Positions 8,284-61,874 of a stretch of 64,000 nt of DNA are shown here, piece after piece; the stretch's first letter is position 1; each line of letters begins with the position of its first letter. Source of the stretch: a virus (lineage: Duplodnaviria > Caudoviricetes). The translations under genes and the position numbers were made by a program. Where the stretch lies: the IMG/VR virus record IMGVR_UViG_3300042569_002957, positions 7,173 through 71,172 of that record; one strand, written 5' to 3'. Under the pieces are notes generated by a model. The model saw nothing but the letters and a program-made list of their open reading frames with translations, was not told the origin of the DNA and searched no databases.

Positions 8284-11040
8284 ATGGCTAATACTATTTT
8301 AGTTAAGAATTCGGGTACAACTACGTCTGTACCTGCTTCTATGACTCATGGGGAACTGGCGTTAAACTATGCAGATGGCAAGTTATTCTATAAGAACGCA
8401 TCTAATACTATTGTTGGCGCTAAATTAATTACTGGAATCTCTGGCACTACAGATCAAATTACTGTAACTGAAACCTCTGGCTCTTTTGTTGTAAGCTTAC
8501 CATCCGCCGTCTCAGTTTCTGGCAATATAGCTGCTGGAGGCAACCTCATCTCCAATAACTCATCTGGTGATGAGGGTGGTGAAATTTTCCTAAAGAAAGC
8601 AGTTACCAACACCACCCTTACTGGTGGAGTCACTATTGACGTTTGGCAAAACAGACTTCGCTTTTTTGAGCAAGGCGGAAATGCAAGAGGTTTTTATCTT
8701 GACATAACTACTGGAGGCGATGGTGTTGGTACCAGTCTTCTTGCTGGCGTACAAGGTTCACAAGGCCCTCAAGGAGCCACAGGCTCCCAAGGAGCTACGG
8801 GTTCTCAAGGAGCCACAGGTTCTCAGGGGGCTACCGGTCCCCAAGGCACCACAGGTTCCACTGGCGCTCAAGGAGACATAGGACCACAAGGCTCCACTGG
8901 TCCCCAAGGGGAAACAGGGGCCACTGGATCTCAAGGACCACAGGGTTCAGCTGGCCCCCAAGGTGCAACAGGAGTACAAGGTGCTACTGGTCCCCAAGGC
9001 GTCACAGGCCCACAAGGTCCTCAGGGTGATATTGGATCTCAAGGTTCTACGGGTCCTCAAGGTGCCACAGGAGCTACTGGATCTCAGGGTCCTCAAGGTT
9101 CCGCTGGTACTCAAGGTGCGACGGGCCCTCAGGGAGCAACTGGAGCTCAAGGTAGCGAAGGACCAGTTGGTGGAGATGGCCCACAGGGTGACGTTGGTCC
9201 GCAAGGAGCTACAGGTTCTCAAGGTGCAACTGGAGCACAAGGATCAACGGGTCCGCAAGGCCCACAGGGGGACGTCGGTTCTCAAGGTGCAACCGGTGCT
9301 CAGGGAGCGACAGGAGCTCAAGGAGCAACAGGCTCCCAAGGTGCAACAGGATCACAAGGCGCAACAGGACCTCAGGGTTCAACAGGCGCCCAAGGGGATA
9401 CGGGACCTCAGGGTTCAGTTGGTCCACAGGGTGACGTCGGACCTCAAGGTGCAGTTGGCTCGCAAGGAGCGCAAGGTGCAACAGGCCCCCAAGGCTCAAC
9501 AGGATCTCAGGGATCTACAGGTCCCCAAGGTGCAACTGGGCCACAGGGAGATGTGGGAGCTCAGGGATCTGTTGGCCCACAGGGAGTTCAAGGGGCCACA
9601 GGATCTCAGGGAGCAACTGGGGCACAGGGAGCAACGGGCTCTTTTGGCGGAGCAACTTTTTCATATAATTACTTAACAAGTACAGCAGATAGTGATCCTG
9701 GTACAACAAACTTAAAGTTTGACAATACTCTTGTGACTGCAACTTTCTTATATATAGACCCAGTTGACAGTAACTCTGTAGATGTATCTGCATATCTTGA
9801 GACAATTGATGATTCAAGTTCCGCAATTAAGGGACACTTTAGGGTAGAAGAAGTTGGGAATTCAGCGGCCTTTGCTTATTACGCAATAAGTGGAGCACAC
9901 ACTTATGTATCCTCATATTATAAAGTTCCAGTTACTTATCTGACTGGCTCTTCTCCATCATGGGCAAATGGTCAAGATATAGTTATTACATTTGTTCGTA
10001 CTGGAGACAAAGGTGATACTGGTGATACAGGCGCACAAGGTGCAACTGGTTCGCAGGGTGCAACTGGTTCGCAGGGAGCAACTGGAGCTCAAGGAGCCAC
10101 TGGCGCTCAGGGAGCTACTGGCACCACAGGAGACACGGGACCGCAAGGTTCCACGGGCCCTCAGGGATCAGTAGGACCACAAGGTGATACTGGCCCTCAA
10201 GGTCCGCAGGGAGCCACAGGAGCTCAAGGAGCAACAGGTGCCCAGGGAGCCACAGGTCCCCAAGGCGCAACTGGCCCCCAAGGAGATGTCGGATCCCAAG
10301 GCGCTACTGGCTCCCAAGGTGCAACTGGACCACAAGGACCACAAGGGGACACTGGCTCACAAGGCGCAACTGGCTCACAAGGTGCTGCTGGCCCCCAAGG
10401 AGACATGGGTCCTCAAGGTTCTACTGGCCCGCAAGGACCACAAGGCTCCATTGGTCCTCAGGGTGAAACGGGATCCCAGGGTTCGACAGGACCACAGGGA
10501 GCAACTGGAGCACAGGGTTCTGCTGGCCCACAAGGAGACATGGGTCCTCAGGGTTCAACTGGAGCCCAAGGTCCGCAAGGAGCAACTGGACCACAAGGCG
10601 CAACAGGCGCTCAAGGTGCTACTGGCGCTCAAGGAGATGTTGGTCCACAGGGTTCCGTGGGTCCACAGGGACCACAAGGTTCTGTTGGACCTCAAGGTGA
10701 AACGGGGTCACAAGGATCTGCTGGACCACAGGGTGCAACTGGCCCACAGGGTTCTACTGGCCCACAAGGAGACATAGGTCCGCAGGGTTCAACCGGACCA
10801 CAAGGACCACAAGGTGCCACAGGTTCTCAAGGCGCTACAGGTCCGCAAGGAACACAAGGAGCAACGGGCCCAGTTGCTGGTTCTGCAAATCAGGTCGTAT
10901 ATAAAGACGGTTCTAACGATGCTGCTGGCAGTGCAAACCTTACATTTGACGGCACAACATTGTCGGTGAGTTCCGTGAGTGTAGCAACTGTAAACAATGT
11001 GAGAGACAATATGATGAAATTTATAATGGAGGTTATGTAA
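8284..11040 (+). CDS. Collagen-like tail fibre/virion fibre protein with Mtd_N-like N-terminus
   Basis: N-terminal [17 protein letters not shown]; two long Gly-X-Y tracts separated by a globular insert of about 120 aa. Confidence 0.85.
8746..9645 (+). repeat. Collagen (Gly-X-Y)n tract 1, hexapeptide period G-x-T-G-x-Q
   Basis: Continuous [12 protein letters not shown] triplets. Confidence 0.95.
10003..10875 (+). repeat. Collagen (Gly-X-Y)n tract 2
   Basis: Continuous triplets from GDK to GPV. Confidence 0.95.
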
Positions 11041-12229: not shown

Positions 12230-13858
12230 ATGGTAATTAGAAGAGTAAATAAACCCATTGCCCAAAGAGAAGGTGGAGACGCCATCTTTGGAGAAGGTAC
12301 AGACGGCCCAGTAACCATATCGAGTGGAACTACATTTTTAACCAAAGACATGTATTACACTAACTTAACAGTTGATTCTGGCGCAACACTATTTACAAAT
12401 GGATTCCGCGTATTTGTCAATGGAACTTTTACAAATAACGGAACAGTCGGAATGCCTACCGCAACTGAACACTCTGTGGCAGATGGAAGTGGCACCATTG
12501 CCGGAAGACAAACTGCCCTCAATCCATCTAAAGCTTGGGGTACGAGTACAGATCCAATATCCGTAACAGAGATCTATGACTTAGATGACGCGGTATCTGG
12601 ATTTTTTATTACCGGCGCAGGAGTTGTCACAAAGATCGCTGGAGGCTCATTAGGGGTAGTTGGTTCCAACGGTACAACCACTGCAGCTACTGGCCCATTT
12701 GCTGGAAACGCTGGAAACTTTCCTGGAGCCAATACGGGGCAGGCTGGCGGTGCAGGAAATGCAGGAACCGCTGGCGGCGCAGCAACTGCGGGAACTGGCG
12801 GTGCAGGTGGTCTTGGCGGTGGATTAGTTATTATCTTTGCCAAGACAATTGCTGGTTCTGGAACATTAGTAAGCTATGGATTTGCTGGATCCGCAGGGAA
12901 CCCAGCTACACAAGGAGCTGCTGGCACTGCAGGAAACCCTGCACCTAACATAACTGGATATCATACGTCGGGGACCTTTCATCACCCTGCTGGATCAACC
13001 GGACCAAACCCAGGAGCAGGCACCCCACACCCTGCTGGACATAATCCTGCAACCCCACACCCAGCTGGTTCTACTCCAGGTAACCCCCATCCAGCTAGTC
13101 ATAATGCAGGGACACATCATCATCCCGCTAACTCTATAACTGCGGTTGTTCCATTTAGTGCGAACCCTCACCCAGCTGGGCATAACCCTCATGTCGCAGG
13201 CAATCCTCACGGGGCTAGTCATAACGCAGGGCACGGCACCCACCATCATCCATCCGGGCACAATCCCGCAGGGCCCTATAACCCCCATAATAAAGGTCCC
13301 AATCCAGGCAACCCTCACCCAGCTGGCAACCACACTGGGCACCACGGTGCTGGTGGTCATCGCGGGTTTACTTTTCATTCAGGCAATCCTCACCCAGCTG
13401 GGCATAACCCTCATGTCGCAGGCAATCCTCACCCAGCTGGGCATACTTCAGGAAATCACCATCACCCTGCTGGATCACACGGTCCGCACGCTGCCCTTAC
13501 AGCGGGCAACCCGCACCCTGCTGGACATAATCCCGCAACCCCACACCCAGCTGGCTCCACTCCAGGTAACCCTCACCCAGCTAGCCATAACGCAGGGACG
13601 CATCCACATACTGTGGCAACGGTGAACTTGACAACAGGTACAGTAACAAGCAACAGGGGCGCTGCCCCATCACACACGGCTACTAATGCTAATTACACGG
13701 GAGGCGCTGGAGGTGCCGCTGGAGTAGGTGGAGCAGCAAATGCGGGAGGAACTGGAGTCACGGGTTCCACTGGTGGTATAATTATTGTTACGAGAAATGC
13801 TGGAAATGCCGCAGGTCAAATTGGACATTCAAACTATAGTAAGATAATTGATATTTAA
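12230..13858 (+). CDS. Gly-rich putative virion protein carrying a His/Pro-rich repeat insert
   Basis: GAGG/GGGLVII motifs flank about 220 aa of NPHPAGH-type repeats. Confidence 0.7.
   Translation: MVIRRVNKPIAQREGGDAIFGEGTDGPVTISSGTTFLTKDMYYTNLTVDSGATLFTNGFRVFVNGTFTNNGTVGMPTATEHSVADGSGTIAGRQTALNPSKAWGTSTDPISVTEIYDLDDAVSGFFITGAGVVTKIAGGSLGVVGSNGTTTAATGPFAGNAGNFPGANTGQAGGAGNAGTAGGAATAGTGGAGGLGGGLVIIFAKTIAGSGTLVSYGFAGSAGNPATQGAAGTAGNPAPNITGYHTSGTFHHPAGSTGPNPGAGTPHPAGHNPATPHPAGSTPGNPHPASHNAGTHHHPANSITAVVPFSANPHPAGHNPHVAGNPHGASHNAGHGTHHHPSGHNPAGPYNPHNKGPNPGNPHPAGNHTGHHGAGGHRGFTFHSGNPHPAGHNPHVAGNPHPAGHTSGNHHHPAGSHGPHAALTAGNPHPAGHNPATPHPAGSTPGNPHPASHNAGTHPHTVATVNLTTGTVTSNRGAAPSHTATNANYTGGAGGAAGVGGAANAGGTGVTGSTGGIIIVTRNAGNAAGQIGHSNYSKIIDI
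12962..13609 (+). repeat. His-Pro repeat insert (NPHPAGH)n, with DNA-level duplications
   Basis: Block PHPAGHNPATPHPAGSTPGNPHPASHNAGTH and block NPHPAGHNPHVAGNPH each occur twice. Confidence 0.9.
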
Positions 13859-20709: not shown

Positions 20710-20865
20710 TGGGGCCCCGATCTAAGGTCTATATTAAAAAAACTCTTTTTTGTATGAACGATAAAAAAATTAATCTCTACCAAAAAATATCCAAGGAATA
20801 AAGATTACCATTGTTGCCAAGAATACGCCAAATATAAAATCACCCATTATTTATCCTCACTTTTA

Positions 20866-49255: not shown

Positions 49256-50929
49256 TTACCACTTAGAACGAGTGGTTTTTATTCTTTTATCTAGCCACGC
49301 TGGCCGAGGATTAGCTTCATAGTATTTGCTAATGATTTGACTAGCAGTTCCCTTAGTCATATCGGATGTAACAGGTACACCGATACGCTTTAGAAGTTTT
49401 CTTTGAGCGTCAGTTGGTCCATCCGCGCGCCAGGCAGCGTCTGATTCAATAAGATTTGTATCAAACTTAGCGATGATCCACTTGTCACTACGGACAAATG
49501 CATCGCGCATATCTTCAGGATGTCCTAAAAGTTTTACTTGAAGTCCATCTAGGGTGCGTTGACGATGCTCGGCAACCCACCGACCAAGTGTATCTGTATA
49601 AATTCTGAATGAATTATAATTATCTACACCAAGGTGGAAGTCGTTTTCAGCAACTTCAGCCCACACAAATCTAGAATATTGTTGAACAAATTCATTTGGA
49701 GGGGGTGGCATAAAGAGATTAATTCTCTTGTAAGCTAACTCTATATCATTAGGGTCTAATACACGAACGGCTTCGCCTGGACAATAGTCCTCGAGCTCCT
49801 TGTATTTTTTAGCTACCTCAATTAGATCTTGTCCCTGTAAATCGAATTCGGGAGGAAGACCTAGAAGAGAAGGAAGGCCAATAGGCTTCTTTCCTTTTGT
49901 GGTATCTGCAAAGTCTAGGACAGTACAATGTGGCTTCCCTTCGTGAAGTCTAGTACCTCGACCAACAATCTGCGTATAGAGCAGAGTAGATCTAGTTGGT
50001 CTTGCTAGAATAATAGTTTCTACGGTCGGTTCGTCGAACCCTTCCGTAAGTACGCCAACATTGATGAGAACTCGCGTTTCACCGCTGCGGAAGCGCGCCA
50101 AAATATCTCTACGAGCATCTGAGTCAGTAGCACCTAAGATAACCTCCGTGTTTATTTGCGAGGACGCAAAGGATGTGGCCAGGTTGTTCGCGTGTTTGAT
50201 ACCCGCGCAGAATACAATTGCTTTGGATTCTGGAACCAGACTATTATAAGCAGCAACAATGTGAGCATTACGCTCAGGGGTATCAATAGCATCTTCCAGC
50301 TGAGATGCAACGTAATCGCCTTCATTTGTCGCAACTCCAGATATGTCTGTATTTGTCTTGATTCGATAACCGACTAAAGAACATAAGTAACCATCCTCGA
50401 TAAGATCTTGTATTGTTTTATAATATACTATCTCATCAAAGACATCTGTCAAACGAGTATTGTCAGACCTTTGAGGAGTAGCTGTTACGCCTAAAACAAA
50501 TGGTGCATTAAAGTAATCTAGAATGCGCCGGTATGTAGGAGCAGCAGCATGGTGGGCTTCATCAATAACTATAGATTTAAAATAATCTTTGGGATATTTT
50601 AGAATACGTTCTGATTCAGCTCGTCCCAAAGTTGGGACTGAGGCTACGACAACATCGCAGTATCCTGCTACGTTATCTGCTTGTTCTATTTGAATATCAA
50701 GCTCAGGATTAGACCAGCTAATCTTTTCTTTAGCTTGATAAAGCAGTTCTGCACGGTGTGCCAAAACAAGCATAGGAAGACTGTTTTGTTTGAACTGAGG
50801 AAGGTGAGAAAATATAACAGTTTTACCTGCACCTGTAGGGAGGACTACAAGTTGTTTATTAATTCCTTTTTCGGAAAAATCATTAATTGATTGTAATGCT
50901 TCTTGCTGATAAGGTCTTAAGGATATCAT
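49256..50929 (-). CDS. Superfamily 2 DExH-box helicase
   Basis: LRPYQ, LPTGAGKT, LAHR.EL, IDEAHH, GVTATPQR, LTEGFD, QIVGRGTR. Confidence 0.95.
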   Translation of the reverse strand: MISLRPYQQEALQSINDFSEKGINKQLVVLPTGAGKTVIFSHLPQFKQNSLPMLVLAHRAELLYQAKEKISWSNPELDIQIEQADNVAGYCDVVVASVPTLGRAESERILKYPKDYFKSIVIDEAHHAAAPTYRRILDYFNAPFVLGVTATPQRSDNTRLTDVFDEIVYYKTIQDLIEDGYLCSLVGYRIKTNTDISGVATNEGDYVASQLEDAIDTPERNAHIVAAYNSLVPESKAIVFCAGIKHANNLATSFASSQINTEVILGATDSDARRDILARFRSGETRVLINVGVLTEGFDEPTVETIILARPTRSTLLYTQIVGRGTRLHEGKPHCTVLDFADTTKGKKPIGLPSLLGLPPEFDLQGQDLIEVAKKYKELEDYCPGEAVRVLDPNDIELAYKRINLFMPPPPNEFVQQYSRFVWAEVAENDFHLGVDNYNSFRIYTDTLGRWVAEHRQRTLDGLQVKLLGHPEDMRDAFVRSDKWIIAKFDTNLIESDAAWRADGPTDAQRKLLKRIGVPVTSDMTKGTASQIISKYYEANPRPAWLDKRIKTTRSKW

Positions 50930-52687: not shown

Positions 52688-52719
52688 GTAGGGGGGCCGG
52701 ATAGGGCCGACCCCCCTAC
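52688..52719 (-). terminator. GC-rich hairpin after the RNAP-like gene
   Basis: GTAGGGGGGTCGG-CCCTAT-CCGGCCCCCCTAC (13-bp stem); weak U-tract. Confidence 0.6.
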
Positions 52720-52732
52720 GATTTTGTATGAA

Positions 52733-55279
52733 TCAGTATAACGATTGTGTAAGTTTTCTTGGAGCAGGTTTTGCACTGACGAAGATGATCGGAGAGTCCT
52801 CTGCGTGCGCTGCTTGGAAAGCAAGTGGATCAGTATACTCTACGTCTTCGCCAGAAGAATCCTGCCAGATCCAACTAGTAACACGTTCGTTAACAATACG
52901 TAAACGATTATTGTTCAATTCACGTTTGACAGATGCGGCTAATCCATAATATTGAAGAGCTTCTTCAAGATACGGAAATACGAATCTGTTCATTACGATT
53001 TGATCAGTAATCTTTCCAGATGAAGTGGGATTCTTAATTGATTCGGAATAGAGAGCAATAACAAAATCATATGAATCAAGGATGCGTTCATATGAAGTAA
53101 TTTTGTCTGCAATTCCTACGTATAAGTTTTCCCAAGAGTTACGCTGGATAGCTCCAGAACTCTTTGTTACTTCAGTGGAGTTGGTATTGTATAGGTCCAT
53201 GCGGAATTGACGCAGAACTGGATAAGCTTGATGACGTAAACGAGCACCAAGTTGGTGAACGATATCGTCAGGTCGAGCATTCTGCTGTGACCATTGACGA
53301 ATGCTGTTTACGTAACGATTAAAGTAGTCATTACATAATGTATATAATTGACTAATTTTACCATCGTAAAGTTCAACAGTTTCGCCACGCTTAAGAAAAC
53401 GTTTCATTCCGCGGGAATACCAGAAGTCTTGATCAATGGGTTTGCCTGAACTAATAACTTCACGCATCATTAATCTAGCTTCTTCATCGATAGCCATAAC
53501 ATCAGCTGTGTCATCAGGGTTGATGCACTTGTCAATTGCGGTTTCCAATGTACATAGTTGTTCTGGACGGTGCTTAGAAATCACCATACTATGAGCCATT
53601 GCTGCATTAACAAATCCACCAACGTTTCCACCTGTCATAGCAATCTTGATATCACGAATGACATCAGATTGAGTATATGGACCGGAACGCTTAGGCTTGG
53701 GAAGAGACTCAGAAGGCAATCCCTTATGGATTACTTTTCCTGCGGCAATTACTTCGCTTAATCGCTTAGGCCATGATCTGCCATTTACTTCAGGAAACAT
53801 AACTGGAGTGCCATCTGCCATATGCCATGTTGGGGCCCAAGAGCCTTCAACATAGCGGAAGACGGAATACTCGCCATAGCCATTTGGAGAACGGGCGACG
53901 ATGACTACTTTCTCGGTGTCGTATTCTCCACCTTGCATTGTTCGATAGAACAATTTGAAGAAGTCGTCCTCATCCATTCCACCATGGCTTTCGTACATTT
54001 CTAGCCAGTCAATATCATTGACTACGTGGCAACCAAGTTGATTGCTACGAACAATAGTTCCTTCTTCAATGAGCAGATCATGTCCGGCCATGCGAGCAAG
54101 GCTTTCGGGAATAATCTGTTCATAGACTGAACATGGAACTATAATTGCTTTCTGTAAAGGCTTAGCGTGGCTAGTAGAAATTGTCTCAAAGAGCCAAGGA
54201 GATTGAGTGACACTAAATCCTGCTGCAGTCCAGCGATAGCCCACATATGCCATGCGTGCTCTTGCTTCATTATCTTCAGCAGTATCTGTTTCTCTCCATA
54301 GTCTTTGATAGATGTACTTCCAGTTGGTAAGAAGATTTCCAGATGTTGCCATCTCGAACATCTTCTTGTACTCTTCGCGGAGCCACATTTCCATGTCGCT
54401 CTTACGGAATAGTTTAGGAAGATTGATGACAGTCTGGTCATCGGTGATGACTCTAGACTTAGGTCCTTGAGGTTCTGCTTGAAAGCGAAATCCATTAGGA
54501 TATGTAATCTCCTGCTTGATATTAGTAGAAGATGTGATAACGTCAATACCTTCTGGCAAGTCTGCTACGAATGCATTGCCTTTAAGAAACCCATCTTTGT
54601 AGATAATGCGGGCATTAACTACGGTAGAATTAAGAAGTTCCTGAACCATGTTCTGATAAAGACGAGGATCATAATAATAATCATGATCTTCTAAGGAATT
54701 ATCAGGGACATGGAAAGGAATATTTTTGACAGATTCCTGAATAAGTCGACGACTGATGACGAAACCGCCATCAAGAAGTCTTTCGACTACTTCAGGGTTA
54801 CGATATTCTGAGGCTACGCCCCAGTCATCATTGGGATCAATGAAGTTAAATCGAGAATAATCAGTAGGATTGACAATCTTAATATTAAGATGATCAAAGT
54901 GAGCGTTCAACAAAGTTGGACGATGAAATGACTTGAGTCTCTTATTGGTCTTAGGGCCTGAATGAACTTCATAGCCCATAGAATTAATTGAACTCATCCA
55001 TCCTGGAGAATTTTCGATGACAACAAAAACAATTTTGTCTTTGTCAACAAGAGCATACTGGATGCTCGGATCATTAATCATATCACAAACTTTTTGGAAC
55101 TGTAATTCAGTATTGGGAACGGGAATGGTATAAACTTTATACCCCCCGAACCCAATACCGTCTATAGATTGACGCAGAGTACCAGCGTCATAGAAGCCGA
55201 ATTGGTAACGTTCGCCACCACGCAGAGGTCCATTGACATCTGCTTGTAAGCGGACTTTTGGTGTATAGATTTCTTCCAT
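52733..55279 (-). CDS. Putative single-subunit two-barrel (YonO/QDE-1-like) RNA polymerase
   Basis: Ordered motifs LDGGFVISRRL, NARIIYKDGFLKG.A.V, ITSSTNIK, DDQTVINL, GGMDEDD, VARSPN, VGGFVN, AIDK match cRdRP/YonO motifs DGxGxIS, R..G.KG, K, N.Q, DxDGD, G...N, D..K. GGAGG RBS. Confidence 0.62.
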   Translation of the reverse strand: MEEIYTPKVRLQADVNGPLRGGERYQFGFYDAGTLRQSIDGIGFGGYKVYTIPVPNTELQFQKVCDMINDPSIQYALVDKDKIVFVVIENSPGWMSSINSMGYEVHSGPKTNKRLKSFHRPTLLNAHFDHLNIKIVNPTDYSRFNFIDPNDDWGVASEYRNPEVVERLLDGGFVISRRLIQESVKNIPFHVPDNSLEDHDYYYDPRLYQNMVQELLNSTVVNARIIYKDGFLKGNAFVADLPEGIDVITSSTNIKQEITYPNGFRFQAEPQGPKSRVITDDQTVINLPKLFRKSDMEMWLREEYKKMFEMATSGNLLTNWKYIYQRLWRETDTAEDNEARARMAYVGYRWTAAGFSVTQSPWLFETISTSHAKPLQKAIIVPCSVYEQIIPESLARMAGHDLLIEEGTIVRSNQLGCHVVNDIDWLEMYESHGGMDEDDFFKLFYRTMQGGEYDTEKVVIVARSPNGYGEYSVFRYVEGSWAPTWHMADGTPVMFPEVNGRSWPKRLSEVIAAGKVIHKGLPSESLPKPKRSGPYTQSDVIRDIKIAMTGGNVGGFVNAAMAHSMVISKHRPEQLCTLETAIDKCINPDDTADVMAIDEEARLMMREVISSGKPIDQDFWYSRGMKRFLKRGETVELYDGKISQLYTLCNDYFNRYVNSIRQWSQQNARPDDIVHQLGARLRHQAYPVLRQFRMDLYNTNSTEVTKSSGAIQRNSWENLYVGIADKITSYERILDSYDFVIALYSESIKNPTSSGKITDQIVMNRFVFPYLEEALQYYGLAASVKRELNNNRLRIVNERVTSWIWQDSSGEDVEYTDPLAFQAAHAEDSPIIFVSAKPAPRKLTQSLY

Positions 55280-55326
55280 AAGGCCTCCTTAAGGCAATTA
55301 TCTACTTTTTTGTATGGACAATAAAT

Positions 55327-55758
55327 TTAGTTTTGTGGAGTACGTAATTTGAAATTACGATACTTATCTCGAGCAATTCGACTTCCCCAAAGTGGGAAAG
55401 TAATTACTCTAAGAATTTTATAAATAATTTTGATAGTGTCAGAGACAACTACCTTAGTTTTGTCTGAGAAATATTTCAGTTGATTACCTCCACGAGCTTG
55501 TGCTTGTGGGGAATCATATGCCCATTCAAGAAAGGCATAACCTGGAATAACAAGTACGGTAGAAATGATTGCAGCAGCCATGGTGATAAGACCAGCTGCA
55601 CCAAACATAATACCTAAGACAAATGAAAGAGCAATTGAGATTGCAAGGTTAATAGCTTTGTTGCGTTTAGCTGCTTTTCTCCAAACTGGAAATTTGGAAG
55701 CAAAGGTAAGCTCAACTACAGCAGAAGCAAAGGCTAAGATCATAACGAAAGCAAACAT
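55327..55758 (-). CDS. Membrane protein
   Basis: Three hydrophobic segments. Confidence 0.65.
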   Translation of the reverse strand: MFAFVMILAFASAVVELTFASKFPVWRKAAKRNKAINLAISIALSFVLGIMFGAAGLITMAAAIISTVLVIPGYAFLEWAYDSPQAQARGGNQLKYFSDKTKVVVSDTIKIIYKILRVITFPLWGSRIARDKYRNFKLRTPQN

Positions 55759-55797
55759 AATATTGTAGAACCCTTCTAGTTTTTTTTTGTATGAATA

Positions 55798-55867: not shown

Positions 55868-56380
55868 TTACTTACATCTAGTTGCCCATGGTCTCCATCC
55901 GCAACGATTATGTTCCTGACTATATTGCCACATAGACCACCCTGCACGCAGGTTAGTTAGTGGATCAAATAGATCGTCACATGTGTTGAGAATGGATTTG
56001 GCTTGCAGCCAACCAGTAGGATTATATTTGTTCTTTTTGCACCAGTATCCATTGATTTGGATAAGGCCACGACTACCTCCATTAGGGTCTGACTTATTGA
56101 AGGATAGCGTATTGCAGCGGGATTCACGATACATGACTTTACTCAGTGTAGGCCACTGAGATTCTGGCCATCCTGCTTGGATAGCAAGGTCGTGATACTC
56201 GCCACATCTACCATAAATAAGTCTAGCTAATTCTGTCCAATTAACTTGAGAGAAGTCAATTGGAGGATTAGTAGTCTGAACGGCTTGGGCATTAGATGTA
56301 TTGGTGTTGGTGATTAGAATACCAGCAGATAATAATATTGCTGTTATGATTGAGACTATCTTATTGATAGTCATGATCAA
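55868..56380 (-). CDS. Secreted lytic transglycosylase (SLT domain)
   Basis: Signal peptide; VMYRESRC (catalytic Glu), SRGLIQIN, NLRAG, GWRPW. Confidence 0.85.
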   Translation of the reverse strand: MIMTINKIVSIITAILLSAGILITNTNTSNAQAVQTTNPPIDFSQVNWTELARLIYGRCGEYHDLAIQAGWPESQWPTLSKVMYRESRCNTLSFNKSDPNGGSRGLIQINGYWCKKNKYNPTGWLQAKSILNTCDDLFDPLTNLRAGWSMWQYSQEHNRCGWRPWATRCK

Positions 56381-56970
56381 TCACCAAAGGTTGATCCAGA
56401 GAATCTCCATGGCTTCCAGCCTGAGGTTTCCCATAGGCGGAAAGCAAAGGTAAGATTCTTTTCTGGGTCAAACATGTCATTTGGATGAGACCAACCCATG
56501 TCAGATAACCACTTAGTGTGGATCTGATTTATCTGGGTAAGGCCTCCATCTGCACCATTCCATGCGTCAGCCTGACATCTGCTCTCACGATAGATAACCT
56601 GTTGAAGGTGTTTCCACTCTTCTTCAGGCCAGCCAACTGAGATAGCAAGATCGTGCCATTCGCCACACTTGCCATGTTGCTCTCTTGCGAGAGCTGTCCA
56701 ATCAACGCCAGATAAATCAGGCATTGTTGTAGTTGGTGCTGAAGTAGTTTCAGGAACAGGAACCGTTGTAACAACTGGAACAGTTGTAGTGACAGTTACT
56801 GTTATTGGTGGTTGAACACTCTGCTCTTTGTTGCCACAAGATGTCAACAGAGTTACGAGTATTAAACCTAAAACGCATAAAGAAACAATAAGAGTAGTCT
56901 TATCATTCTTTAATTGCTTGATTATGTTAATGAACCTAAATTGCATTGGTTCGCTCCTTTCGGTAAGCAC
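56377..56970 (-). CDS. Lipoprotein lytic transglycosylase (SLT domain)
   Basis: Lipobox LLTSC, Thr/Pro linker; VIYRESRC, GGLTQIN, PEKNL, GWKPW. Confidence 0.85.
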   Translation of the reverse strand: MLTERSEPMQFRFINIIKQLKNDKTTLIVSLCVLGLILVTLLTSCGNKEQSVQPPITVTVTTTVPVVTTVPVPETTSAPTTTMPDLSGVDWTALAREQHGKCGEWHDLAISVGWPEEEWKHLQQVIYRESRCQADAWNGADGGLTQINQIHTKWLSDMGWSHPNDMFDPEKNLTFAFRLWETSGWKPWRFSGSTFGD

Positions 56971-61627: not shown

Positions 61628-61874
61628 CGATCTTAACTGTTTTGTATGAACTAAATTTTTTTTATTAGAAAGGTGTTTGCGCCACGAGTCTTACGTGGAT
61701 ATGCGCATTCAACTCGAAATTGTTGAATACAGCTGACAAATTTGCCGATCAGCTTCCGCAAACAAGACTTTCCCGCAGGCTACTGCTGTCACAGTAGACA
61801 TTACACATGACAGTGTGCAACATCAATCCACGGTTCCACTTTAGTGTCCCTAGTTATGTGTTACCTGCAGTACT

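Follow-up and report, generated by a model that had tools for sequence, protein, structure and literature searches.

A predicted two-barrel RNA polymerase of uncultured tailed phages with a DxDD loop and an R-x-P motif that follows it

All two-barrel RNA polymerases (RNAPs), from those of bacteria to the enzymes of RNA interference, are described as sharing eight invariant residues, four Asp, two Lys, one Arg and one Pro, to which the DxDxD loop and the R-x-P loop ahead of it contribute (PMC2919709). Among the cellular RNA-dependent RNA polymerases (RdRPs; Pfam PF05183), which include Neurospora QDE-1 (2J7N, 7Y7P-T) and plant RDR2 (7W82, 7W84, 7EU0/1, 7ROZ), their roles have been seen in complexes of QDE-1, where D1007, D1009 and D1011 bind metal A and D709 of barrel 1 binds metal B via water; binding of the product strand falls to Q736 and R738, contacts with the template 2'-OH to N795 and Q797, and a Pro-gate loop with a cis-peptide, R962-S963-P964, lies 43 residues before D1007, with R962 binding the 2'-OH of the nucleoside triphosphate (NTP) and P964 the minor groove (PMC9508822). 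Phage-encoded relatives include YonO, the single-chain DNA-dependent RNAP of Bacillus prophage SPbeta (PMC5467207), the Thermus phage non-virion RNAPs P23-45 gp64, P74 gp62 (8F5M) and P32 gp64 (8F72) with the tape-measure-fused gp96 (8H2M/N) (PMC10770324), and the virion RNAP gp66 of crAss-like phage phi14:2 (6VR4). New viral RNAPs are looked for by motif searches built explicitly on the DxDxD signature (PMC10770324). Here we describe an open reading frame (ORF) at 52733-55279 on the minus strand of a 64,000-nucleotide (nt) stretch of DNA, hereafter the window (positions 7,173-71,172 of IMG/VR record IMGVR_UViG_3300042569_002957, Caudoviricetes; coordinates follow window numbering), whose product is predicted to be a two-barrel polymerase that departs from this signature and from the canonical motif order.

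The ORF runs uninterrupted from ATG to stop behind an AAGGAGG ribosome-binding site and bears no annotation; its product, of 848 amino acids (aa) and ~97 kDa, comes from an uncultured phage of ~200 kb. An earlier note, made from the sequence of the window without database searches, had read in it the motifs DGGFVIS, NAR..GFLKG, SSTNIK, DQTVINL, GGMDEDD, VARSPN, GGFVN and AIDK, and our ORF check and back-translated coordinates agree that the frame is intact and that all of them stand in this order. The protein belongs to a real, large and unnamed phage family of metagenomic origin. Of the candidates that a word-based search scored, 209 metagenomic relatives reached E<=0.001, nearly all of 825-865 aa, and an exhaustive HMMER scan gave 238 clusters at 50% identity, 146 of them with E<=1e-10 and most members 800-1000 aa long. 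Members are found on phage contigs 79-203 kb long, surrounded by small genes of early type, and contigs of close relatives reach 194-204 kb; distant members lie in other phage contigs where small ORFs follow one another, and one such member adjoins a terminase. Every named member is labelled 'hypothetical protein'. In BFVD there is an 'uncharacterized protein' from an uncultured Caudovirales phage with 55% identity, and the nearest ESM Atlas clusters bear PF05183 (score 0.78), which we take as a lead only. A tblastn search of 50,697 deposited phage records gave no match, and PHROGs gave two matches only (E ~0.16), nothing meaningful. Our literature search found no paper on the family, which may yet be included among the 23 RNAP-family alignments of PMC10770324; the two-barrel superfamily is already known, and for the DxDD spelling and the motif order we found no prior description. 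The closest viral contig, IMGVR_UViG_GVMAG-M-3300027797-21_000001, shares the gene order and a 99% identical polymerase; IMG/VR gives it a giant-virus metagenome-assembled-genome label, but its gene content is that of the tailed-phage-like window, and the label is probably a binning artefact.

Sequence methods reach no described polymerase family for this protein, and structure methods do. An AlphaFold2 model built on an 80-sequence alignment is confident (predicted local distance difference test, pLDDT, 92.2; predicted template modelling score, pTM, 0.91), and Foldseek matched it in the PDB to QDE-1 (E 4.2e-10), to maize and Arabidopsis RDR2 (E 6e-9 to 5e-6, with one open-form entry at 2.5e-5), to P74 gp62 and P32 gp64 (E 1-2e-4; gp62 1.3e-4) and to crAss gp66 (E 8e-3). 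VIA-align placed RDR2 first (Z 11.7, 542 residues aligned), followed by QDE-1 (Z 10.3, 584 aligned, model residues 13-800 against chain residues 485-1346, colinear), gp62 (Z 9.1, 402 aligned), P23-45 gp96 (Z 6.7, 313 aligned) and gp66 (Z 6.7, 502 aligned); the next chain, an unrelated one, reached Z 5.5 over 72 residues. The same three chains (RDR2, QDE-1, gp62) headed a Foldseek-independent search of 48,161 representative chains, in which the other listed matches were helical and of 60-95 residues except gp96 (313) and gp66 (472). Every match of the predicted structure longer than 300 residues is thus a single-chain two-barrel RNAP. The model is colinear with the catalytic region of QDE-1 and RDR2 along the whole protein and is predicted to have a two-barrel architecture with one active-site cleft. 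The check by AlphaFold and Foldseek that the earlier note had proposed therefore came out in favour of its reading, a small single-chain two-barrel RNAP of a poorly known phage lineage, which the model supports as a prediction. T7-type single-subunit RNAPs (PF00940) gave no Pfam match, and the structural matches have a different fold; among the matches listed by the three structure searches, archaeal PolD DP2, a two-barrel DNA polymerase, does not appear.

Conservation was counted in an alignment of 124 full-length members, ~20-74% identical to the query, and goes far beyond chance in the motif columns. Six residues are invariant (K113, D436, D438, D439, R463 and P465), and the earlier note had named conserved Asp residues in homologues as a test of its reading in advance, a test that the three aspartates passed. 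Near-invariant columns are K233 and G171 (122 each) and D170, K255 and G433 (120 each), followed by D583 and R114 (119 each), G554 (118), Q282 (116), G234 (112), G469 (111), G434 (110), E470 and N558 (106 each), E579 (104), R224 (103) and K110 (102); column 280 is N in 48 sequences and D in 45. In kind and number, the invariant and near-invariant residues (six and about ten, respectively) match the eight-residue set of two-barrel RNAPs. The two Lys and one Asp expected from the other barrel are present as K233, K255 and D170, which by motif order would be the equivalents of Rpb2 K979, K987 and D837; for D170 we infer the equivalence from motif order and spacing compared with PMC9508822 and PMC2919709. 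By the same reasoning D170, N222-x-R224, (N/D)280-x-Q282, R463-S-P465 and D436/D438/D439 are the likely counterparts of the QDE-1 residues named above, and R224 lies 58 residues before Q282 where QDE-1 R738 lies 59 before Q797.

Two features set the family apart. The loop reads D-x-D-D in 124/124 members (x is variable, L or Q being commonest and E occurring in the query; spellings include GGWDLDD, GGCDLDD and GGCDQDD), so that it holds three Asp, the third shifted by one position, is not a D-x-D-x-D triad and falls one residue short of the usual DxDGD. The R-x-P motif, here R-(S/N/T)-P-x-x-x-G-E, always lies C-terminal to the Asp loop instead of N-terminal to it, again in all 124, at a spacing of 14-41 residues (median 18; exactly 18 in 67/124), measured from D439 to R463 in query numbering. 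Both the variant loop and the late R-x-P had been picked out by the earlier note and hold across the family. At the canonical upstream site a conserved Arg was looked for and found in 14/124 only. We rejected two upstream candidates for the true R-x-P, SPxL (360-363) and RxPIPC (378-383), as Arg occupies column 378 in those 14 sequences only and residues 361-376 are helical in the model.

In both models, that of the whole protein and that of barrel 2 alone, two short helices (422-432) lead into the Asp loop (433-439), which is followed by a strand (441-447), a turn that is usually two residues long across the family (D/N-G), a second strand (457-463), R-S-P, G-E and a further strand (472-476). 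Modelled by itself, barrel 2 comprises strands 384-387/389-391, 408-412, 417-420, 441-447, 457-463 and 472-476 with two helices. The hairpin register puts R463 opposite F440 and would therefore bring the gate loop beside the aspartates. In the double-psi barrel as reportedly described by Castillo et al. 1999, canonical beta-3, which ends in R-x-P, and beta-6, which starts after DxDxD, are antiparallel neighbours, and the hairpin would thus restore this arrangement by linking the chain differently. The earlier note had suggested a circularly permuted second barrel. Its changed order stands; a permutation of whole half-barrels is unlikely, because R-x-P follows the loop at a median of only 18 residues, too short a distance for a swap of half-barrels, and the relocation of a single strand appears to be the better reading of the model. 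Nine chains of the beta-prime type are among the 50 best VIA-align matches of isolated barrel 2, at Z 3.0-3.4, within the noise of the list. Their alignments place model residues 4-82 (protein residues 379-457) on the NADFDGD segment and end just before the R-S-P strand, an end point that fits the relocation of one strand, as weak evidence.

A relative with more than one copy bears on the age of this order. IMGVR_UViG_3300027974_000020 (169 kb, polymerase 54% identical) carries three copies: an orthologue with DxDD; a paralogue of 866 aa whose loop has the canonical length, D-Q-D-G-D, with R-S-P-N ~50 residues later; and an open frame with D-L-D-D and R-Q-P 22 residues later. R-x-P comes after the Asp loop in all three, including the copy that keeps the Gly, and the order of the motifs is therefore older, by sequence comparison, than the loss of the Gly. 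A single copy was detected in each of the two closest large contigs (G001 and G002), and a profile search of all six-frame ORFs of the window returned this gene only. A distant member of 1533 aa (P0252; L014:3863-8464, GCA_034680565.1) is fused C-terminally (1084-1527) to a helicase of PIF1/RecD type from superfamily 1 (SF1). At the C-terminus of another member, P0251, lies a NADAR match that is weak and falls below threshold.

The gene probably encodes a single-chain polymerase of the two-barrel (double-psi beta-barrel) superfamily, whose fold is also that of the catalytic core of cellular RNAP, and most likely it is the phage's own DNA-dependent RNAP. The genome of a relative, IMGVR_UViG_3300008110_000004 (G001; 193,906 bp, ~194 kb, estimated 92% complete, polymerase 75% identical), carries a DnaE-type Pol III alpha (E 2e-94 in a 1113-aa frame) and a DnaB-like helicase (loci L012 and L013), and profile searches of it found no family A or B DNA polymerase, no T7-type RNAP, no Rpb1 domain 2 and no sigma-70 region 2, nor Toprim_2, DNAG_N or Prim-Pol. 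With no other recognisable RNAP or sigma factor in that genome, a role as the phage's own transcriptase is the simplest reading. The setting of the family on phage contigs among small genes of early type speaks for this role, as does the 11-nt motif TYCATACAAAA that recurs ahead of genes, this one among them. The enzyme would be made after infection and would transcribe phage genes. Barrel 1 would supply D170, K233 and K255, with R224 and Q282 serving product and template; barrel 2 would supply D436, D438 and D439, holding the catalytic Mg2+; and the R463-S-P465 gate, which in relatives reads the 2'-OH of the NTP and the minor groove, would come from the return strand of the tight hairpin after the Asp loop.

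Several results weigh against this assignment. The third Asp is displaced by one position in the loop. Pfam returned no family for the protein at E<=10, neither phmmer nor a profile search matched any PDB sequence, and PF05183 was found in 0/44 distant family members. The profile match to PF05183 or YonO that the earlier note had proposed to look for did not appear: hhalign of the family against YonO alone, or against a 30-sequence YonO-family profile, gave probabilities of 0.8-1.8%. Its best local path to YonO put R-S-P on R-S-P and GGFVN on IGEISN, skipped the Asp loops and was suggestive, though not significant; the score against the YonO profile remained at 19-25 wherever block 454-478 was put, over 22 alternative sites with the canonical one among them; as the score is independent of where the block lies, the sequence signal is too weak to decide strand order. 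Isolated barrel 2 (376-480) had no Foldseek match below E 1 in the PDB and reached Z<=4.0 at most in VIA-align. The absences in G001 concern a few profile families and a relative's genome, not this phage.

Other activities are conceivable for the same fold. The enzyme could be a replication primase, a two-barrel RNAP that provides the phage's DnaE/DnaB replisome with RNA primers, or with an origin opened by transcription: G001 has the DnaE and the DnaB-like helicase with no match to Toprim_2, DNAG_N or Prim-Pol, a DNA helicase of superfamily 2 (SF2) always lies downstream of the gene, and the helicase fusion of P0252 is an architecture typical of primase-helicases. However, those are three primase families in a relative, host DnaG could serve, the full slab, neck and head of the processive QDE-1 and RDR2 enzymes are retained, and transcription would be left with no other phage RNAP or sigma factor found. 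We regard this as unlikely as the main function, although the roles of primase and transcriptase are not mutually exclusive. That the best structural matches are cellular RdRPs, and that QDE-1 uses both RNA and DNA templates (PMC9508822), would suit an RdRP like RDR2 or QDE-1 making double-stranded RNA from phage or host transcripts, in regulation or counter-defence. Yet the phage relatives of known activity in the same structural clade, YonO (PMC5467207) and P23-45 gp64 and gp96 (PMC10770324), are DNA-dependent, no bacterial partner genes of RNA-interference type lie nearby, and a double-stranded DNA phage with no other RNAP or sigma factor plainly needs an enzyme that is DNA-dependent, which makes an RdRP quite improbable.

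A PolD-like two-barrel DNA polymerase, or a catalytically dead structural relic, appears very improbable. PolD shows that a two-barrel fold can make DNA, the relative's genome gave no family A or B DNA polymerase in the profile search, and the loop departs from DxDxD; but a DnaE-type replicase is present in that relative, the Arg of R-x-P, which in QDE-1 reads the ribose 2'-OH, is invariant, PolD is missing from the structural matches listed, and a relic would hardly keep three Asp, the Arg, the Pro and the Lys invariant over 124 sequences. For the DNA-dependent RNAP that we favour, a wider proposal, quite conceivable though we would not call it probable, is that the family's barrel is wired unlike that of every described two-barrel polymerase, the R-x-P strand having moved into a hairpin after an Asp loop one residue shorter, with the geometry recreated. 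If so, a strand permutation that is not circular would have arisen naturally within the most conserved active site known for any enzyme, in a phage lineage that is deep and has three or more old branches of paralogues, one of them still DxDGD, and the enzyme may be the sole RNAP of ~200-kb phages, possibly also their primase.

The surroundings of the gene are phage-like. It sits in a minus-strand block of mainly small genes of unknown kind with six tRNAs, and elsewhere the window holds a JAB peptidase, an AAA+ ATPase, collagen-like fibre genes and a tryptophan halogenase. In 9/9 related viral contigs the gene is adjoined by a hydrophobic neighbour, at identities down to 45%, for which Pfam and PHROG searches of the 143-aa protein gave no match, and the SF2 helicase is kept ~2-5 kb downstream, also in 9/9. 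The sequence TYCATACAAAA is a candidate phage promoter or operator: seven exact copies occur in the window against 0.2 expected, five of them (including that of the polymerase) lie in coding-strand orientation, 27-53 nt ahead of gene starts on the minus strand, and the copy upstream of the polymerase gene is kept in relatives L004-L009 (73-96% protein identity), where the flanks have diverged. A sigma-70 promoter scan of 48-60 kb gave 42 hits against 39.5 in shuffles, not above background. Coordinates are collected in Table 1.

Table 1. Features of the polymerase gene, its product and its surroundings (window numbering unless a locus is named).
Feature	Position	Strand	Basis or remark
Single-chain two-barrel polymerase gene (P0001, predicted)	52733..55279	-	ORF, AlphaFold2 model, matches to RDR2, QDE-1 and gp62
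K110-T-N-K113-R114 basic motif, N-terminal to barrel 1	54938..54952	-	Conservation; putative role in nucleic-acid binding
D170-G171, candidate fourth catalytic Asp, barrel 1	54767..54772	-	Likely counterpart of QDE-1 D709 and Rpb2 D837
N222-x-R224...K233-G234, barrel 1, candidate first catalytic Lys	54578..54616	-	Resembles QDE-1 Q736-x-R738
K255, candidate second catalytic Lys, barrel 1	54515..54517	-	19-37 residues after K233
D280-x-Q282 (N/D-x-Q)	54434..54442	-	Likely counterpart of QDE-1 N795-x-Q797 by order and spacing
Catalytic barrel 2 (residues 376-480, predicted)	53840..54154	-	Folds alone; pLDDT 95.2, pTM 0.86
H432-G-G-M-D436-E-D438-D439, predicted metal-binding loop	53963..53986	-	DxDD spelling
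Beta-hairpin after Asp loop (441-447, turn, 457-463), ending R463-S464-P465-N-x-x-G469-E470	53870..53962	-	DSSP, both models
R463-S464-P465, candidate 'Pro-gate' loop at non-canonical chain position	53885..53893	-	R and P in 124/124
G554-G-F-V-N558, start of helical C-terminal part	53606..53620	-	hhalign to YonO IGE(I/Y)SN, not significant
E579-T-A-I-D583 motif	53531..53545	-	Conservation
TYCATACAAAA, candidate promoter/operator	55308..55318	-	29 nt upstream of polymerase start codon
TYCATACAAAA, other copies	20748-20758, 52722-52732, 55785-55795, 61640-61650	-	Exact match
TYCATACAAAA, further copies	18596 (-), 45215 (+)		Exact match
Upstream neighbour, 143-aa hydrophobic (membrane-like) protein	55327..55758	-	Syntenic with polymerase
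Downstream SF2 helicase (ResIII and Helicase_C)	49256..50929	-	Pfam E 3.7e-31; phrog_16 DNA helicase E 1e-93
Extra paralogue in IMGVR_UViG_3300027974_000020	L019:1255-3852	+	DQDGD and RSPN
Extra paralogue in IMGVR_UViG_3300027974_000020	L020:1390-3672	-	DLDD and RQP

A GC-rich hairpin, GTAGGGGGG ... CCCCCCTAC, which has no T tract, separates the polymerase gene from the one that follows (~52690-52722, minus strand). It comes just behind the polymerase stop codon, immediately beyond a TYCATACAAAA copy, and may be a terminator or an element of RNA stability. Just upstream of the polymerase gene, two adjacent and overlapping genes with SLT-type lysozyme domains (55868-56380 and 56377-56970, minus strand) stand side by side; the second protein shows a linker rich in Thr, Pro and Val, a lipoprotein-like LLTSC signal and, weakly, a PHROG match to Rz-like spanins. 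Farther off, a 918-aa collagen-repeat protein (8284-11040, plus strand; Pfam Collagen E 5e-89) adjoins an N-P-H-P-A-G-H-repeat protein (12230-13858, plus strand), in a region of 48-51% GC where the rest of the window has ~37%.

If the assignment is right, a large and widespread phage family breaks both rules, DxDxD and the preceding R-x-P, yet keeps the fold. An ancient active site could then be wired in more than one way, which would bear on the origin of the barrel pair from duplicated beta-beta-alpha-beta units. Annotation would at present be missing a class of phage RNAP, given that searches of Pfam, PHROGs, the PDB and cultured phages found nothing, and the protein would give a compact single-chain RNAP candidate, accompanied by a candidate promoter motif of its own, that can be put straight to the test in vitro.

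One known system for comparison is the beta-prime-type catalytic barrel of multisubunit RNAPs (bacterial, archaeal, eukaryotic, phiKZ, vaccinia and African swine fever virus), to which the nine chains found with isolated barrel 2 belong and whose alignments all stop short of the R-S-P strand. With crAss-like gp66 it shares the single-chain two-barrel design (Z 6.4-6.7 over 470-500 residues), but gp66 is a virion protein of 2,180 residues and a weak Foldseek match. The Thermus phage RNAPs are likewise single-chain two-barrel enzymes of phages with almost no sequence similarity to others and an early-gene setting, and they match the model in structure (gp62 and gp96); unlike the present family, they bear the DxDxD signature, through which they were discovered (PMC10770324), and, being smaller at ~590 aa, have no counterpart of the C-terminal helical region common to QDE-1, RDR2 and this protein. 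YonO is also phage-encoded, a single chain of nearly equal length (839 against 848 aa), and its translation from the SPbeta record has the same barrel-1 motif order (DG, R..KG, K, Q); it keeps the canonical order, however, with LRSPH followed by DNDGD ~43 residues later, and the YonO family matches PF05183, whereas the family here does not and stays below 2% probability in profile comparison.

The cellular RdRPs QDE-1 and RDR2 are the best matches, over ~540-600 residues and colinear across slab, both barrels, neck and head, and they share the types of the catalytic residues. The N-x-R and N-x-Q motifs for product and template stand at nearly equal spacing in QDE-1, and its R-S-P gate (962-964) has the same spelling. 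Yet identity to QDE-1 and RDR2 is ~10-12%, with no match to PF05183, and the phage proteins lack their long N-terminal extension. Where the cellular enzymes have DxDGD, the phage family has DxDD; it has no conserved Arg at the canonical place, and its R-S-P comes ~18-24 residues after the loop instead of 43 before it, as in QDE-1.

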